DNA from: Octopus vulgaris
Taxonomy: Eukaryota
Direction of reading: 5' to 3'
Assembly (NCBI GenBank): GCA_951406725.2
Contig: OX597819.1
Location: 8,184,001-8,248,000 of the forward strand
Length of the DNA stretch: 64,000 nucleotides
This document shows, piece after piece, positions 786 to 52,261 of this stretch. The stretch's first letter is position 1; the number at the start of each line of letters is the position of its first letter. Position numbers and translations under genes: made by a program. Under the pieces are notes generated by a model. The model saw only the letters and a program-made list of their open reading frames with translations. It was not told where the DNA came from and did no database searches.

Positions 786-829
<44 letters not shown>

Positions 830-1435
830 CAAACACACATGTACGTATGTATGTGTGTCTATCTATGTCTATTTATGTATATATGTGTACATATATATGT
901 ATACGTTTATATATATATATATATATATACTCGTAAATATATATACATTGAAACATAAATATATATCAATAAAAACACATTTCTTTTCAAGAGGGAAGAA
1001 AAAAACAACTGAGTAATAAATAAAATAAAATATATTGTCTATAAATCATTGTGGCAGATAATTAAATTGTTCAATTCTGGTACTGTGTAGTCTCTCTGCT
1101 CTGGCATAGATTAGATCTCTATCTTTATTGGATGGCACTGTACTGCTTTGTGTTGCTCTCAACCTGAAAACTTGGCCCAGTCTTGTACACAAGAATCCTA
1201 TCTCTTTGTCACTGAATGCAGTCATCAGAATCAACAGAATAAGAGAATGATAGAATAGAGACATACTAATAGTTATTTTGATGAAGCAGTTGAAAGGATA
1301 TGTATGTATATTCAAATATATATATATATATATATATTATATGCGCGTGTATATGAATGTGTGTATATTTATATTTATATATGTACACATTCATATACAT
1401 GTACTCATCTGTGTATGTTTAAGAGTGGGGAGGTC

Positions 1436-1469
<34 letters not shown>

Positions 1470-2180
1470 TGCATGTGTATGTGTGTGCGTGTACCGACAG
1501 AGACAGGGGCCAACCAATGAGAAATGTAAGATAGTGTGTCAAAAAGATGCCAACATATTGCAGAGAACTATATTAATTTGTGAGACATCAAAATGTTTTG
1601 GCATCAGTGAATTGTCAATTCTGCTTACTGAGTTTTGCTATTGATAAATTAATTGTAAACCACTCAACCGTGTGTTTTGTTTTTCGTATATGGAGTAATG
1701 TTTGGATGTGATAAACATCTTATTGTTTTTCTTATTATCCAGTTCTCACTTCACCTCTATGACCGGTCTGGGAAATAGACAAAACGAACATATCGAATCT
1801 GCTCTGTTGTCGGTCTTTCGCTCTTCTTGATCAGTGTTGTCAGTGACTATATATTACTTTACAACATTGTTAAACCAAGGTCGAACTGCAAGATACATCA
1901 GTTCTCAGGGGGATTGAACTTCGAAAATCTAGACACACATTTGTCTATTTGTTTGCACATTTACCCTTTTCCAATCTATTTACCTATTCCAGTCCATTTC
2001 TTTCTGGGCCATTCCTTTTTCGGTCAACTTCATTCACTCATTCACCAACACTTTGTGTGTGTGTGTATTCATTCATGCACACATACATACACATATACAT
2101 ATATGTATGTACATGTATGTGAATACATACACATATATAATCCTTACATACTTACCCAAACATATACATACATATACATG

Positions 2181-2216
<36 letters not shown>

Positions 2217-2224
2217 TGCACACA

Positions 2225-2602
2225 TCTTTATATATAAAAGTCAAGTTGTGTGTCTGTCTCCTACGATTTAGATTCCTAACTACTCCCACATTTTGCGGTG
2301 CAGTTTAACCAAAACCGGGTATCTTATAGTCGTGATTCATATCGAGCCCTTCTGGGTATTAGCGCGCGTCTACGATGAGTTTACCATCATTTTTTTCCAT
2401 TTTAATGCATTTTTCGCTATTATATAAGGGAAGTAACTCTCTAAAAATGTCTACGATGAGTCAACGATTTAAAAAAAAATTTACCAGCATTTTTTTCCAT
2501 TTTTAATGCATTTTTTTGCTATTTTTTTTGCTATAACTCTCTAAAAATGCTTATATAGTTATTTCCCTTACAAACCCGAGCAACGTCGGACGATACTGCT
2601 AG
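2225..2602 (+). mobile_element. Non-autonomous Helitron, family H1
   Basis: Starts 5'-TCTTTATATATAAAAG; ends CCCGAGCAACGTCGGACGATACTG-CTAG (subterminal hairpin plus CTAG); sits between host A and T with no TSD. Near-identical to the copies at 24928 and 55902. Confidence 0.88.
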
Positions 2603-2978
2603 TATAATATATATAGCTAGTTAGCTGGCTAGATAGATAGAGCAGTTAAATAATTCATTAGGATCGAGGTAAATCCATGTAGGATTCCAAGAATGGGTGG
2701 ATGGGAACTTAGGATCGATCTCACACTATGTTAAAGCATATCTTAGTTGTCGTTTGCTGGTGGTATTCTATAAGTATCTGTATATACTGTATATACTGTA
2801 CGTTTGTGTATGTTTTCATTATGGCAGTTGCTAACTGGTTATCTTCTGTTTCTAACTTACCTATTTATGTAATGATGGCGGGGTTTTGCTTTGAAGTAAT
2901 CCAAGAATGCATCGACAAAATGTTCCCTAAACAACTGTTGGTTTATGAGCATCATTTGTATTCTCCCTTAATTAGTTA

Positions 2979-3342
2979 TACATACATACATACATACATA
3001 CATACATACACACATACATACATACATACACACATACATACATACATACATACATACATACATACATACATACATGCATACATACATACATGCATGCATA
3101 CATATATACATACATACATATATACATACACGCATACATACATACACACATACATACATACATACATGCATACATACATACATGCATGCATACATATATA
3201 CATACATACATACATACATGCATACATACATATATACATACATACATACATACACAGATATATACATACATACATACATACACACATACATACATACATA
3301 CATACATACATACACACACACATACATATACACATACATACA

Positions 3343-3376
<34 letters not shown>

Positions 3377-3482
3377 CATACATGCATGCATACATACATA
3401 CATACATACATACATACATACATGCATGCATGCATGCATGCATACATACATACATACATACACACATACATACATACATACA
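2979..3482. repeat. (TACA)n microsatellite; similar tracts at about 5810-6330, 29250-29600, 33655-33910, 38343-38620, 57975-58437 and 61315-61575
   Basis: Directly visible; source of the YIHT/MYVC pseudo-ORFs. Confidence 0.97.
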
Positions 3483-3624
3483 TATATATATATGTGTGTG
3501 TCTGTGTGTGTATAATTCAAAACTACAAATAAAAAAGGAGAAAAGAGAGATAGAGAGAGAGAGAGGGAGAGGCGGGAACAATAAACAAGGTGCATTAGTT
3601 TGACGCATAGGTTAAATGGAAGAA

Positions 3625-3662
3625 CTTTCGACGTTTCGAGCTTACGCACTTCTACAGAAAGG
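3625..3662 (-). ncRNA. Minimal type-I hammerhead-like motif (A6U core variant) in a short non-coding repeat (about 3512-3790)
   Basis: Minus strand reads ccttt-CTGTAGA-A-GTGC gtaa GCTC-GAAA-CG-TC-gaaag. Flanks are homologous to 47660-47745. Confidence 0.55.
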
Positions 3663-4489
3663 AATGAGGAAGGAAACAGATGGAAAGTAAGGGGATGGGG
3701 AGAAAAGAAAAACGTGTCTTGATTTACGGTTACACCTCTTCGATTCGCCGGAGGGAAGAAAGTGGTTGGGGACATTGACGGCAAGAGAGATTATGGTGAT
3801 CTGACTAAAGTGTGTGCGTGCAAGCATGCGTGTGTATGGGAGGATAATGTGCTATGTGTGTGTGTGTGGGGCAAACCCGTGTGTGAGTATGAAGATTATG
3901 TAAGCACGTATATGTATACGTATGGGAGCGCAGATGTGTATGCGCTTGTGTGTCTAAGTGTGTGAGTGAACAAATATGTACGCGTGTGTGTGTGGATTGA
4001 TGTGTACGCGCTTGCTCCGGGTATTTATGTGTGTGTTGTACGTGTGTGTGTGAATATGTTTGAGTGTGTGGTGTATTTGTGTGTGCGGGGCTATCGGATG
4101 TGTGTGTGTGTGTGTGTGTGTGTGTGCTTGTGCGTGACTAATGTGTGTTTCATAATTAGTTACGGTCCACACCTAACTCGACGACCCTATTTTCGTGAGC
4201 AACAAAACAACGGAGGAGCAAATTAGGGGCCTGGCATAATTTACTGCAATCAGTAAGAGACGTAACATTACTTCATAGATCAATAATACAGGTTCCCCGC
4301 CAGTCATTGATTTGTTTTTGAGAATGTAAAACAGAAAACGATTCTCGGTAATCTAACTTGGAATTATCTGACTTTGTTATCTGACCTAGAATAATAGAAA
4401 ACTCTCGTTGATTGCCAATCTGTGTTGCTTAATTACTACTCTAAATACGTGTCTCTTTATACCCTTATTAAATCCTACTTTCCCATGGC

Positions 4490-4890
4490 AACAAGGTAGC
4501 TTTGCAGGGAAGGGAAAATCGATGACATCGATCCCAGTAATTGACTGCTACTTATGTTATCGACTCCGAAAGAATGAAAGGCGAAAATCAACGTTGGTGG
4601 AATTTGAACTCAGACCGTGATGACGGACGAAATACCCATTTCTTTATTACCCACAAGGGGCTAAACACAGAGGGGACAAACAAGGACAGACATAGGTATT
4701 AAGTCGATTACATCGACCCCAGTGCGTAACTGGTACTTAATTTATCGACCCCGAAAGGATGAAAGGCAAAGTCGACCTCGGCGGAATTTGAACTCACAAC
4801 GTAACGCAGACGAAATACCGCTAAGCATTTCGCCCAGCGTGCTAACGTTTCTGCCTGCTCGCCGCGAAGCATTTTGTCCGGTGTTGTACC
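4490..4890 (-). mobile_element. Deu/Nin-domain-like tRNA SINE (family D): a young copy (about 4637-4865) embedded in an older diverged copy
   Basis: Matches the 20354-20584 copy. Carries TTGCCTTTCATCCTTTCGGGGTCGATAAATTAAGTACCAG on the minus strand. Pieces of the old copy lie on both sides (4490-4636 and 4866-4890). Confidence 0.85.
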
Positions 4891-4982
4891 TTAAGTTATA
4901 ATACAAGCAATTTTTTTTTATTAAACTAAAGGATTTTTCCATACTTTTTGTAGAGTATATATCTATTATTCTTCAATAATAG

Positions 4983-5078
4983 TATTGATAGTGATTTCGA
5001 AGTTTTCGCCCGCTAAGCCATCGTTGGATTGTCCAGTGACAGCTTAGCAGGGCCGACACTTAGAAGTCACTATCAATA
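4983..5078. repeat. Imperfect 96-bp palindrome / long hairpin
   Basis: TATTGATAGTGA pairs with TCACTATCAATA, GCTAAGC with GCTTAGC, and CGTTGGA with TCCAGTG around a ttg loop. Confidence 0.85.
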
Positions 5079-17095: not shown

Positions 17096-17158
17096 AGATA
17101 AAACTCTGAGTTTCAGATGCCGAAGTGGAAATCCACAACACCATCTCTTCGGTTATCT
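17096..17158 (-). ncRNA. Type-I hammerhead motif (U4C variant) in a ~170-bp insert (17065-17235) in a (TA)n tract
   Basis: Minus strand reads AGATAA-CCGAAGA-GATG...CATC(T)-GAAA-CTCAGAG-TT-TTATCT, giving a 6-bp helix I and helix III ACTC/GAGT. Confidence 0.68.
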
Positions 17159-20645: not shown

Positions 20646-21031
20646 CTCTCTCTCTCTCTCTCTCTTTCACACACAAACACACACACACATACATGCGCAC
20701 GCACTCAAAATATATATATATTTGTTCCACGTCCTCGCGTTGTTGTGTTTTTTTGTGCTTTCATGTTTGGATAAATTTTAACAATATATATATATATTTA
20801 TATATATATAGGAGGATATGTGAAAATGTGATTATGGTGCTGCACTCTTTCGATTCAGGGTGATGCACTGTTTTCTGGAGCAATACACATTGTCTCATGT
20901 TGGTCTACGATCACTTTGACATCTGATGTGTTGCACTGTGCACCTGCACAGTGTACAGGCTGTTCGTTAAGAGATTGCAGGATTTTCATATATGACCTAC
21001 GACAGGAGAGTTCACAATATACGCACAGGTA

Positions 21032-23504: not shown

Positions 23505-24321
23505 TTAGTATAAAACTTACAAAATGTACAGTCCCCACTTTTCTTTCAAACATTCAATTTCGAAGAGAATTTTTTGATGAAATGTAGTTCCATTGTTTCT
23601 CAGTATTGCAGATCGTCCCGTGCACATTTGTAAAAGGGAAACATTTTGAATTTTCGCTGCATATTTCCAGATGCTTAATTAATGGAATCTTACGTAATTC
23701 CTCTTGTAGCTTATGTTGCCTGTGGATTCTTGCACGTTGGCAGACGGAATTATTTGTTTCGCCTATGTAATTTTCTTTGCGGTTTGGGCAGGTAATGCAG
23801 TATATGAGGTTATCCGTTTTGCAGTTCATATCTTCATTTATTTTGAAAAGGGATCCGCTCTTGAATTTTATGTGGGAACCACTTTCAAAGTATTTGAAGT
23901 TGTTGATGCGTTGATGCTGTTACATGTTCCACATCTCCTATCTCCGCATTCTATTACTAAGAATTCTGATTCATTACTCTTATTTGAGTTCTGCCCTTGG
24001 GAGGGATTTTAAAGATTTTTTGGTTGGCGTCTGCTATTTCGTAATCAGATTTTTCATTTTGGGGCCTTGTAGGAGTATAGGTAAGTTCGATTTTATGGCG
24101 TGAAAGATGTTGGTTATTCCAGGATTGTGTGTGTTAACGAAGGGAATCGAGTTTTCATTAACTTTTTCCTTGGGTGTCTGTAGATGGGCGATGTTCAGTT
24201 TCATCACCTTTTTAATTCCCTCATTAATTAATCCTAAGAAGTATTTCTGCAATGTGAGGAAGCCTTTGAGTTCATTGAGTCGGATTTCAAGTGTTTTTGG
24301 GTCAGTCACTATAGAACAGAT

Positions 24322-24736
24322 ACTCTTTCTCTTTCTCTTTTCTCTTTTACTTGTTTCAGTCATTTGACAGCGGCCATGCTGGAGCACCGCCTTTAGTCGA
24401 GCAATTCGACCTCGGGACTTATTCTTTGTAAAGCCAGTACTTATTCTATCGGTCTCTTTTGCCGAACCGCTAAGTGACGGGGACGTAAACACACCAGCAT
24501 CGATTGTGAAGCAATGCTAGTGGGACGAACACAGACACACATACACAAACACAAACACACACATATATATATATACATATATACGACAGGCTTCTTTCAG
24601 TTTTCGTCTACCAAATCCACTCACAAGGCATTGGTCGGCCCGGGGCTATAGCAGAAGACACTTGCCCAAGATGCCACGCAGTGGGACTGAACTCAGAACC
24701 ATATGGTTGGTTAGCAAGCTACTTACCACACAGCCA
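24322..24736 (-). mobile_element. SINE family B nested in the PLE
   Basis: Near-consensus copy interrupting ...IPYSM|SICSIV... of the PLE ORF. Confidence 0.92.
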
Positions 24737-24927
24737 CATGCTGTATGGGATATTTCTATTGAGGCAAGAGTAGAAATTTAAATATCGGTGTGTGTCTGTT
24801 TTTTTGTAAAATTCTGTCTGTTATGACTGTGGAGTTCCGAATTTTTATGTGGATATCGAGGAATGGTAGTTCATTGCAACTGAATTGTGTCGTGAATTTC
24901 ATGGATGGGTGAAGTGTGTTCAGTATA

Positions 24928-25326
24928 TCTTTATATATAAAAGTCAAGTTGTGTGTCTGTCTCCTACGATTTAGATTCCTAACTACTCCCACATTTTGCG
25001 GTGCAGTTTAACCAAAACCGGGTATCTTATAGTCGTGATTCATATCGAGCCCTTCTGGGTATTAGCGCGCGTCTACGATGAGTCTACGATTTAAAAAAAA
25101 AAAGTTACCATAATTTCTTTCCATTGTAATGCATTTTTTCGCTATTATATAAGGGATGTAACTCTCTAAAAATGTCTACGATGAGTCAACGATTTAAAAA
25201 AAATTTACCATAATTTTTTTTCCATTTTTAATAAATTTTTTTGCTATTTTTTGGCTATAACTCTCTAAAAATGCTTATATAGTTATTTCCCTTACAAACC
25301 CGAGCAACGCCGGGCGATACTGCTTG
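24928..25326 (+). mobile_element. Non-autonomous Helitron H1 nested in the PLE RT
   Basis: TC start and CTTG variant end. Removing it restores the in-frame sequence LNIFNN|ILNTLHPSM at an A|T junction with no TSD. Confidence 0.92.
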
Positions 25327-25802
25327 TTGTTAAATATATTTAGAACTTCATTCGATTTATCCCAGAAGAGGGAGCAACCATCAAGTACGCATTTCCACTT
25401 TTTAATAATATATTTCTTGTGCTCCTGATCAAAAGTTTTTTCTACTTCCTCATAAAGTTTTTCTTCCAAGTATCCCATAACTAAGTTTGCATATGAGGGC
25501 GCAAATCGCGTACCCATAGCTGTGCCCTTTATAGGTCGATATGTTTTATTGTCGAATCTAAAGGTATTTCCTTCTAGTACTAGGCGTGTGGCAGTGGTGA
25601 TGAAGTCAGTCTCGCAGCGTTCATTTATCCGTTGTCAATGTTTCTCTACCCAGTGTTTGATTGCTTCTAGGCCTAAAGTGTGAGATATATTAGTATAGAG
25701 ATGCCACCAATCTCTCTACTCAATACATACACACACACACACACACACACAAATATATATATATATATGTGTGTGTGTATATATATATATATAAAATATA
25801 TA

Positions 25803-34744: not shown

Positions 34745-35010
34745 ATATAAATATGTATATCTAATGTAGGCTAAAATTTTTTTCGAAAAAAATTCTTTTC
34801 CCAAAAAATTTTATCAATGGCCAGCATATTAAAAAATACCTTTAAAGGTTAAATTTATAAACAATTCATAAATAAGGGAAACGAAAAAATTTCTAATGCC
34901 AGATATACCGAAAAATTGGACATATTGTCCATTAACCATTTAATTTTTTCACAGTACGCACGCTACTCGAAAAAAGGTCGACAAAAATTTTTTTAAAATT
35001 TCATTATTAC

Positions 35011-35067
35011 CATATCGGACCGATTTCAGGGTTAGCTTATAACAGCCCTCCCTTCGTCAGTGATACA
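35011..35067 (-). ncRNA. Minimal type-I hammerhead ribozyme (canonical core) in a ~380-bp insert (34760-35140) between (TA)n tracts
   Basis: Minus strand reads TGTATCA-CTGACGA-AGGG...CCCT-GAAA-TCGG-TC-CGATATG; helix I has a terminal A·C mismatch. Confidence 0.75.
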
Positions 35068-35213
35068 TGTGGCAGAAGAAATAAATGAATTACTTACTCA
35101 TACCCATGGAAGAAGCAAGCACTAAGTCATGAGCACAATTAAGTATATATATATGTATATGTGTATATATATGTATATACACACACACATATATATATAT
35201 ATGTATGTTTACA

Positions 35214-35255
<42 letters not shown>

Positions 35256-35287
35256 TATATACATACATATATGTACATATAAGGGCA

Positions 35288-35516
35288 TATATGGGCACAG
35301 GACGTTACAGAACGTAAACAACTTGAAATACGAAAACATGGAATACGAACATTTTTTGCGAACAAAGAAAGAAACAAATGGAAAACAAGACAAGCAACAT
35401 AAAGAACGACCCTTCATATTTTGCTCGATATACGGAGTAGAAAAATTTCTTATTCCATGTTTTCGTATTTCGTATTTCATGTTGTTTACGTTCTTTGGTG
35501 TCCTGTTCCCATATAT
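35288..35516. repeat. Fold-back insert with ~60-bp inverted arms in a TA tract
   Basis: ATATATGGGCACAGGAC...AGAACGTAAACAAC.TGAAATACGAAAACATGGAATA is mirrored by its reverse complement at 35451-35516. Confidence 0.85.
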
Positions 35517-35776
35517 GCATTTGTATATACATATATATGTAAATATGTACATATATGTATCTATATACATGCATATATAACTATGTACATATATGTATGT
35601 ATATATGCATATATATGTATATATACATACATATACATATATACATACTTATATTAATAAAAGGAATTCCAACCTTGTCTGATTTTCACGTTTTATTTAC
35701 AATCTTACAATGATATAAGATAATATAATATAATAAAATAAAATAAAATAATAGAATGTTAAATTTTCATTCTGAT

Positions 35777-35821
35777 TGAACTAGTACTTTCATGCATTAA
35801 ATTCTGCAATCTTCAGGTTCA
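35777..35821 (-). ncRNA. Minimal type-I hammerhead ribozyme (canonical core)
   Basis: Minus strand reads TGAAC-CTGAAGA-T-TGCA gaatttaa TGCA-T-GAAA-GTAC-TA-GTTCA, with a perfect helix I and palindromic helix III AGTACT. Confidence 0.8.
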
Positions 35822-35888
35822 TGTAGTAGTGGTGACAGTCATGCTTCACAATTTTTGACTGTCAAAAATTGTGAAACAAAAATGCTAG

Positions 35889-35938
35889 CAAAAACTGTCC
35901 GATGAACGGCAACGGGAAACTCAGAGTAACAGGTTTTG
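35889..35938 (+). ncRNA. Type-I hammerhead motif (U4C variant)
   Basis: Reads CAAAAACTGT-CCGATGA-ACG gcaa CGG-GAAA-CTCAGAG-TA-ACAGGTTTTG; homologous to 41620-41657. Confidence 0.7.
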
Positions 35939-36077
35939 TTGAATTTTCAGCTGCTTTAAATAAAGTATATATATATGTATATATATCCTCGGTCCTTCTT
36001 TCCTGAGAGTCTGATAATACAGTACTTGTACCACGTCCTCGCGTTATGTTTTTTTCTTGTTTGTTCTTTGCTTGCAT

Positions 36078-36136
<59 letters not shown>

Positions 36137-36219: not shown

Positions 36220-36960
36220 TGTACATTTTATACTTCTAATTTCGCAGATGCGAATTGTTTATTTTTGATTTTGTCTGCTATACAGTATAGTAGGCTCAGT
36301 TGGGCACCGTCTGTGAGAAAAACAGTACCATGACTCAATTCAGTCTGCCAGAAATTTGGAAACGACAAGCTGTACTGCTTGGCATTTGCGCTGGAAGCTG
36401 CAATACGAACATTTCAGAGTGTTTGGATGTCAATCTGAAGACCGGGAAACGTGCGGACATGTATTGAGAGTGATAAAATTCAAAAGTTCAGTCAACATCA
36501 TGGTGTTTGGAGTGATCACTAGTAATGGCGAAGTTATGCCTCCATTCATCTTCCTACACAACCTCACACTCGACACGGAGGTCTACATCAAGTACCTGGA
36601 GGAAGTAGTGCTGCCCTGGGATAAGGGTATGTCTGCTGGAAGACTCTATGCCTGGCAACAGAACTCTGCACCATGTCATAGAAGCAGGAGAACCCAGTCA
36701 TGGCTGTCAGACAATTTCTGCGACCACATCGTCCTTAACATCTGTACACCTAAACTTCTAGACTGCAACCCCTTCATTATTACGTGTGGGACGCAGTTGA
36801 TCAAGAGGATAGCAAAACTACTTGCAGCCCCCAAGATTAACTGAAGGCAAGAATTACAGCAGCATCCACCAACTTAAACGAGGAAACCTTCCAGAAAAGT
36901 GGCAGGAGATTTCGAAGACGTCTAGAGGCCGTAGTTGAAGCCAATGCCGATTTTATTAAA
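36220..36960 (+). mobile_element. Internally deleted maT-like (DD37D) Tc1/mariner relic
   Basis: Translation IMVFGVITSNG..WQQNSAPCH..DCNP; homologous to 61931-62711. Confidence 0.8.
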
Positions 36961-41301: not shown

Positions 41302-41619
41302 ACAGAGACACACACACACACATATATATACATACATATACATATATATATGACTGTATAAGGTATCTTTTAGCTTTCACTTGTTTCAGATTGTGACCAT
41401 GCTGGGGCTTCGTCTTAAAAAATTTTTCTCGAATAATTCGACCCAGTTTACGGGGACGTAAACACTTCAACATCGTTTGACATTAGATGGTGCGAGACAA
41501 ACACAGACAAAAAGACAAAAGCACACACTCACACACAAACACACACACCGACCCCCCCACACACACACACACTTTATTATAATTGAAGCTGCAAAAACAT
41601 CACAAAAATATTACAAAGA

Positions 41620-41655
41620 CTGCTACTCAGAGTTTCACGTTCCCGTTCATAGGAC

Positions 41656-41657
<2 letters not shown>
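41620..41657 (-). ncRNA. Decayed hammerhead motif (core CCTATGA), homolog of 35889
   Basis: Minus strand reads CTGT-CCTATGA-ACG ggaa CGT-GAAA-CTCTGAG-TA-GCAG; lies in an 80-bp insert (41578-41658) abutting (TA)n. Confidence 0.6.
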
Positions 41658-48869: not shown

Positions 48870-49262
48870 CTATATGTGAACATCCAAATACCTCAACATT
48901 GTTCTCGCACCCTAGTCGCTTCCCTCCCCCACATCTACAACACTAAGCATGCTCTCCGTGTCTTCTGTTCACTCTTGATATCAAGAGTTTATATACGGTG
49001 GCCATGGGAACAAGAATGGACCCCACCTATGCGAATCAGGTTGTTGGCTATATGATGGCCAAAATATTCTCACAATTCACTGGTCCCACTCCCTAAAAAT
49101 ACGGTCATTATATCGATGACTGTATCGGCGCGACATCAATCTCCCGCGAACAACTAGACTCCTTCCTCTCTTTTGTCCAATCCTTCCATACTGTCCTCAA
49201 ATTCACCTGCACTATCTCTAACCTTTCTGTCGAATTTCTCGACATTTTTGTCAGAATACACC
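48870..49262 (+). pseudogene. Penelope-like RT fragment
   Basis: Translation VAMGTRMDPTYANQVVG...GHYIDDCIGA...LKFTCTISNLSVEFLDI. Confidence 0.82.
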
Positions 49263-49269
49263 ATATATG

Positions 49270-49342
<73 letters not shown>

Positions 49343-49344
<2 letters not shown>

Positions 49345-49572
49345 TACGAAGATGTACTTGCATAACAAGTGATCTGATCTGAGATCGTGTGCTGGAACGA
49401 AAACAATTGCAGCACGGACAAAATTCCGTGTTGCACGGAATTTTGCCTGTGAACAGGTCGCGGTCACAAAGCGATGAAAATATTTTGACAAATTAAATTT
49501 AAATGTTGAAGTGAATCTAACGGTTTTTGTGTGTTTCTTAAATGGCTTATAAACACCTTCCACGCTGCAATT
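49343..49572. repeat. Microsatellite-embedded insert with inverted repeats
   Basis: AATTGCAGCACGGA (about 49405) pairs with TCCACGCTGCAATT (about 49559); internal hairpin GCAGCACGGA caaat TCCGTGTTGC. Confidence 0.6.
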
Positions 49573-51861: not shown

Positions 51862-51928
<67 letters not shown>

Positions 51929-52164
51929 AAAAAGGAGATGTGGAACACGAGTTGTGATATATAAAAAAGGAAATGAAGAAAATGCTGACAAAATAATTTA
52001 AGTAATTTAAGAGGAAAAAATATATCAGAAGTAACTCTATCTCTCTTAAAAAAACATCTTTTGATAAGCATAACAAATGCGCAACCGGTAAAAAGAACAT
52101 TCACCTAATTAAATTACTTAAATTACTAAATTATTTTGTCAGCATTTTCTTCATTTCCTTTTAT

Positions 52165-52261
<97 letters not shown>

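Follow-up and report, generated by a model that had tools for sequence, protein, structure and literature searches.

The 64-kb stretch of Octopus vulgaris DNA analysed here (the window) is AT-rich and rich in TA and TACA microsatellites. Between two of its TA tracts lies an insert of about 310 nt with two hammerhead motifs, A on the minus strand and B on the plus strand, that point away from each other (Table 1). A sequence-only reading had placed the motifs at these coordinates and in these orientations, with the outward ends running into TA, and all of this was borne out. Both outer ends of the insert adjoin TA tracts and no such tract is found at the joint between A and B. The 122 nt between motif A and the left tract are assigned to family A by presumption, because 35640-35762 was skipped as a repeat in the contig mapping described below; the last bases of this tail are similar to the ends with which another family, at 51925-52167, meets TA. 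On the other side, a paralog of B in the window (41605-41657, minus strand) shares the last 7 nt of the B tail and then runs into microsatellite. A search for a TSD around the insert returned only TA-repeat matches of 6-7 nt, none of which can be read as a TSD.

Table 1. Features of the two-hammerhead insert and its TA flanks (positions in the window)
Feature	Position	Strand	Remarks
Left TA-rich microsatellite	35522-35654		Presumed left target; TA/AT dinucleotide fraction 0.63
3′ tail of family A piece (presumed)	35655-35776	-	122 nt, AT-rich, abuts TA; collinear with hammerhead A
Hammerhead motif A	35777-35821	-	Minimal type I; descriptor scan gives exactly these coordinates; stem I of 5 bp and stem II of 4 bp, intact CUGAAGA and GAAA boxes, palindromic helix III of 6 nt, triplet CUA
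Family A sequence upstream of ribozyme	35822-35862	-	Contig matches; copy 5′-truncated at 35862
Perfect hairpin	35845-35875		15-bp arms, 1-nt loop, centre 35860; 2 more pairs past one mismatch, to 35878
Inverted fold-back copy of A's truncated end	35863-35878	+	Reverse complement of 35842-35857
A-rich filler	35879-35882		About 3-4 nt; no match to the A arm or to the B upstream consensus as listed
5′ end of family B piece	35883-35890	+	8 nt, self-complementary; site of B/B head-to-head palindromes
Hammerhead motif B	35889-35938	+	Minimal type I; core scan and part-by-part reading; stem I with 9 of 10 pairs, stem II with 2 bp, U4C core, GAAA box, palindromic helix III of 9 nt, triplet GUA
3′ tail of family B piece	35939-35965	+	Ends at TA; family contigs cover to about 35955
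Right TA tract	35966-35985		20 nt; a fragment of another repeat family adjoins at 35986-36081

Motif B escaped the first descriptor scan on account of its short stem II of 2 bp. When the descriptor was relaxed in stem II, 4 matches were obtained in the window as against a mean of 0.05 and a maximum of 1 in 100 block shuffles. Helix I is formed in both motifs. Stem II is of 4 bp in A, 2 bp in B and 3 bp in the B paralog, with a mismatched closing pair in A and in B (pair 10.1-11.1 is U.U in A and A.G in B). The G10.1-C11.1 pair is thus absent from A and B; its place is taken by A-U in the B paralog and in a further motif at 35008-35065. Neither motif alone folds better than its shuffles (z of 0.19 for A and -0.40 for B). 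Searches of the whole window and of two sub-regions against Rfam gave 0, 76 and 38 matches, among which no hammerhead family appeared at any threshold; the output held only microRNA-like matches to TA tracts and to the hairpin at the joint. A mir-2024-like reading of the hairpin scored 27.6 against a gathering score of 69 and was dismissed as a chance fold. Judged by their sequence, both ribozyme copies look decayed and are probably inactive. We also considered whether A and B might co-operate as ribozymes. The helix III duplex energies are -4.8 kcal/mol for A/A, -7.4 kcal/mol for B/B and 0.0 kcal/mol for A/B, and a joint role was rejected since A and B lie on different strands, do not cross-pair through helix III and are both damaged.

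The U4C change of motif B is also present in other copies of families A and B among the run contigs. Some of the family A copies have, at position 35815, the substitution that results in U4C, which is also the state of B and of a hammerhead-like motif at 17096-17158 (minus strand); U4C seems to be common in these families. Position 35915, in motif B, is variable among the copies. The motif at 17096-17158 has the helix III of B, a much longer stem II and a TA end. The B paralog is 81% alike over 53 nt, keeps A-U at 10.1-11.1 and has no A sequence upstream; it is truncated inside stem I and has a G5U change. Its helix III differs from that of B at the central base, and as a result the two would form a perfect mixed dimer (-12.5 vs -7.4 kcal/mol for B/B). 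The best-preserved motif of the window is the one at 35008-35065 (minus strand, within 34750-35143), which has an intact CUGACGA core, A10.1-U11.1, a longer palindromic helix III and a long stem II (-9.5 kcal/mol, z of -2.36).

An open frame of 21 codons (35902-35964, plus strand) runs from an ATG within the core of motif B to the end of the B piece. The cut site lies 27 nt after this ATG; the value is 26 in PAc, where it is counted from a different core position. In Poseidon and Pen2a the ORF begins within the pLTR (PMC3846280, PMC11167929), which the ATG of B recalls. The frame may possibly be the start of the ORF of a parent element; this is a weak reading, as a stop codon interrupts the same frame in the paralog and the parent protein was not found. 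The frame check gave no open frame at the ribozyme for motif A. In viral and metagenome contigs the exact 20-nt pattern of motif A had 0 matches. The pattern of motif B had 7 matches in metagenomes, all 7 of them in unrelated sequence of 45-55% GC without a hammerhead continuation, and these were discarded.

Public sequencing runs were used to see how A and B occur elsewhere. Out of 24 runs listed, 20 hold part of 35655-36075, with at most 0.61 of the 46 words sampled; for RNA-type runs the value is 0.33-0.37, which is a word share only and no measure of expression. Four runs, one for each of four organism labels, were mapped at 82% likeness and gave 5071, 810, 2425 and 1552 records; runs X20-X24, with word shares of 0.00-0.04, lie outside this mapped set. 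It may be noted that the mapping skipped 35640-35762 and 35956-35991 as repeats, and the zero depth over 35640-35759 and 35970-35984 is an artefact of this skipping. Consensus agreement is 0.52-0.98 in the rows listed, which comprise 32 of 10015 pieces and 24 of 422 loose-end rows. The summed depth, which does not stand for copy number, was 0.51-0.77 million, 8.8-19 thousand, 0.37-0.47 million and 13-58 thousand in the four runs over the A bins (35775-35849), and 0.86-2.5 million, 47-144 thousand, 0.66-1.7 million and 0.32-0.80 million over B (35895-35954). At the joint (35865-35879) the corresponding values were 1201, 2.25, 124 and 160, i.e., 0.03-1.3% of the lowest A bin, a contrast of two to four orders of magnitude with A and B. 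The insert is therefore not the consensus of one abundant family, an origin that the sequence-only reading had itself raised against its claim of two unrelated elements.

That claim agrees with the comparison of the two halves, whose similarity is at the level of chance (best local score of 20, matched by 81 of 1000 shuffles), and with their appearance as separate families in the run contigs. Among the rows listed, A copies diverge behind 35854 in 24, 24 and 22 contigs of three runs and behind 35862 in 8, 5 and 15 contigs of three runs, and B copies enter before 35883, 35885 or 35891 from other sequence. Taken with the depth contrast, these divergent upstream continuations reveal two separate families, both abundant, and a fused form that is rare or unique. 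The families consist of dispersed 5′-truncated copies with several 5′ end points and the hammerhead near the 3′ end (810-5071 records per run). No contig across the whole stretch and no A-B joint was found among the 32 pieces and 24 loose-end rows listed. Also, four of the contigs listed link B 35925-35939 back to 35886-35894 via 3-4 other letters, which reflects either B copies in short tandem or else the complementarity of stem I.

The joint itself had been expected at about 35850-35865. It is no point within that range but takes the form of the 15-bp hairpin at 35845-35875, with B starting only at about 35882-35885. This hairpin is the longest non-simple perfect hairpin of the window (z of -5.33, 0 of 200 shuffles), and even 12 bp were reached by only 13 of 20000 shuffles of the insert. 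Its left arm, its loop and the first 2 nt of its right arm are family A sequence, up to 35862, past which family A continues differently in other copies. The next 13 nt (16 with one mismatch) are a perfect reverse complement of A's own end. On the B side, among the rows listed, the sequence before 35883 is the reverse complement of B from 35891 onwards in all 4 runs (16, 4, 12 and 14 contigs), giving perfect B/B palindromes centred at 35886/35887. Since these palindromes share this centre, the B half of the insert starts where B normally meets its own inverted copy. A B/B centre of zero loop is expected from two cDNA ends that anneal via a short self-complementary end, or from fold-back.

The insert belongs to a cluster at 34750-36081 in which at least five families are found. 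It comprises another hammerhead element (the third), a tail-out pair of one family (35282-35521), the insert and one more repeat piece. From piece to piece the TA spacers measure 138, 133 and 20 nt; between A and B there is none. As same-family tail-out pairs are present, head-to-head geometry is ordinary here, and what is special about the insert is the foreign partner and the missing TA. Such pairs, each enclosed by TA tracts and with an asymmetric centre, are seen at 35282-35521 (arms of about 75 nt) and at 51925-52167 (arms of about 52 nt).

The likeness to the inverted pLTR layout of PLE insertions, which had been suggested from the sequence, holds good, since same-family versions of it occur in the window and among the B copies of all 4 runs. 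Inverted 5′-truncated PLE copies beside an upstream pLTR, with a bias to (TA)n and TSDs that often cannot be read, are described in PMC8557442; palindromes at inverted PLE junctions, with a model of self-priming on an antisense template, are described in PMC3846280. Head-to-head insertions of EN+ PLEs as given in these two sources resemble the insert in the divergent layout, in 3′ ends that run into (TA)n, in the palindrome at the joint, in having one hammerhead per end piece and in the unreadable TSD. The insert differs from them in that its arms come from two families and its same-family inverted arm is only 13-16 nt long. The head-to-head layout is thus already known for PLE insertions, and the insert shows it with two families. 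Our literature search, which took in few subscription papers, met with no account of PLE pairs that are head-to-head and of two families. The supplement of PMC8557442 gave 0 matches to five short A/B motifs, a weak search because long cells were cut. A and B are likely to be members of the PLEs, and no parent ORF is linked to either of them.

We tentatively favour, at a little under an even chance, a single integration into the TA repeat in which each broken end was primed on a different RNA, one of family A and one of family B, and the A cDNA folded back. In such an event a PLE endonuclease would cut both strands of the TA repeat. The left 3′ end would prime cDNA on the family A RNA and copy it rightwards from 35655 to 35862, and the right 3′ end would prime cDNA on the family B RNA and copy it leftwards from 35965 to a point near 35883. 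Next, the A cDNA would fold back on itself at its free end and be extended by 13-16 nt, after which the two cDNA ends would be joined via a few A-rich bases and the gaps filled. The product would be a dead 5′-truncated pair of pLTR ends from two PLE families. It is the PLE parentage, the order of priming and the joint arrival of the halves that we infer in this scheme. The opposite orientation of two RNAs without target DNA between them supports a single event. Because its 5′ end is the site of the B/B palindromes, the B half resembles an unshortened arm of an ordinary head-to-head insertion, joined here to a foreign partner. Against a single event stand the one locus and the lack of a readable TSD in TA, and an empty or half-filled allele was not seen; a joining step that skips the TA tract would also land near the 5′ edge of B. 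Template switching, which the sequence-only reading had offered along with twin priming, does not survive in its plain form. A switch between sense RNAs gives pieces of the same direction (PMC13174262) and is excluded by the divergent orientation; switching fits only if the second template was a cDNA or an antisense strand.

Two sequential insertions explain the joint almost as well as one event. Here B would have entered the TA tract first, and A would later have inserted in the opposite orientation just upstream, its folded-back cDNA being joined with a deletion at the target site that took away the rest of the TA as far as the edge of B; we consider this course somewhat unlikely, with a real share of the probability. 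Families A and B are very abundant and both abut TA, and the crowding of the cluster marks the region as a hot spot of TA insertions, where sequential neighbours are to be expected. A PLE 5′ junction formed by microhomology without a TSD is described in PMC3846280, and as TA would offer little microhomology to a non-TA end, a joint near the edge of B is what one may anticipate. Yet the TA spacer must vanish wholly with almost no loss of B, and the other three neighbour pairs of the cluster retain their TA spacers. The hairpin may otherwise be the centre of an A/A inversion, left when a long A/A palindrome stood beside B (or B/B) and a later deletion took the spacer and the greater part of the right A arm. 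B/B palindromes do exist, and beyond the hairpin 5 of the 9 positions of 35876-35884 still match the A arm, which at 35884 may overlap the B/B arm by 2 nt. But the 4 mismatches among these positions are all A, unlike random decay. Deletions in long palindromes usually take out the centre, and here the centre is kept. We regard this deletion as improbable.

The remaining explanations concern the standing of the fused form as such. The depth at the joint is nonzero, and in run X1 it is 1201 as against 30-63 for the X1 pieces listed, as might be seen if A-B were a small mobile subfamily spread from one master locus. This depth is such a small share of the lowest A bin that it could come from pieces reaching in from the sides, and with the joint absent from the pieces and loose-end rows listed we find a subfamily very improbable. 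That same absence of a bridging contig among those listed, along with the word share of at most 0.61 in any run, may be turned to the opposite account, namely that the joint is an assembly or library chimera such as a fold-back read. Short contigs of abundant repeats seldom bridge such sites, the hole proves nothing, and the anatomy of the joint fits described PLE junctions (PMC3846280); the chance of a chimera is slighter still. An endogenised ambisense viroid-like circular RNA with one hammerhead per polarity would suit the length of the insert and its one hammerhead on each strand. However, the halves come from separate genomic repeat families, the insert folds with 50-53% of its bases paired and has no rod shape, there is neither terminal redundancy nor a tandem copy, and both ribozymes are damaged, which leaves this origin hardly credible.

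If the single integration on two RNAs is taken as a guide, PLE head-to-head insertions in general would use two RNA molecules, one per cut end and not necessarily of the same family, and heterologous pairs without a spacer would be a recurrent class. We hold this generalisation to be doubtful at present. For the origin of PLE inversions self-priming on an antisense template has been proposed (PMC3846280); in vitro, a Poseidon protein cuts and extends both strands (PMC11167929). Same-family inversions cannot separate one template from two, and two-family pairs can. Were the generalisation true, heterologous pairs would be the trace left in the genome by an integration step on two RNAs (a dimer), and they would speak against pure self-priming on a single template as the source of PLE inversions. 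The many copies in the genome make a genome-wide count of pairs feasible. PMC11167929 reports that the purified Poseidon protein, a predicted dimer, cuts and extends both target strands and that hammerhead cleavage is unnecessary in vitro. In Adineta vaga, according to PMC3846280, there is no evidence for cross-mobilisation between PLE families. The locus itself is probably inert, and as a single example it is no proof of mechanism.

Other known systems share part of this picture. Minimal hammerheads in PLE repeats are described in PMC4209133, which for Schistosoma mansoni also notes opposite-strand pairs separated by 100-700 bp; the metazoan pLTR hammerheads treated there are likewise of type I, with a short stem I and a tiny palindromic helix III suited to dimers, mostly in solitary copies. 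They differ in having G-C at 10.1-11.1, as against A-U in the related copies here, and B has U4C. The insert is a two-family pair, whereas the passage on the pairs in PMC4209133 states no family relation for them. Antisense chimeras of L1 with other RNAs, attributed to twin priming (PMC13174262), also place two RNAs in opposite orientation at one site. These rest on TSDs and on co-arrival seen across species, and here both partners are retroelement ends. L1 twin-priming variants are the subject of bioRxiv 10.1101/2024.08.27.596794. Non-LTR retrozymes, regarded as PLE derivatives (bioRxiv 10.64898/2026.07.22.740005), are like the insert non-coding, PLE-related and equipped with a type I hammerhead, but they are head-to-tail tandems of one family and the insert is head-to-head of two; no head-to-tail hammerhead tandem is found at the locus. 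A repeat consensus library on Zenodo (PMC13282606) may include A, B or a fused consensus.

Elsewhere in the window, decayed PLE-like coding remnants are found at 23554-25634 (minus strand) and 49097-49372 (plus strand), with RT-like frames recognised by eye and no Pfam match to these. Within the former, a GIY-YIG remnant (23554-23919) gave a Pfam E value of 7e-05 in one of the six frames tested; it has no link to A or B. Beside the RT-like remnant lies a second perfect hairpin (49419-49445) with 12-bp arms and a 3-nt loop. The repeat piece that follows the right TA tract (35986-36081) is 74% alike over 85 nt, including TA, to another piece at 20719-20803; this family is abundant and TA-flanked, and depth from family contigs is present over 35985-36074. 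Further downstream, a plus-strand remnant at 36317-36844 resembles a Tc1/mariner transposase by eye, with no Pfam match at E 0.01.
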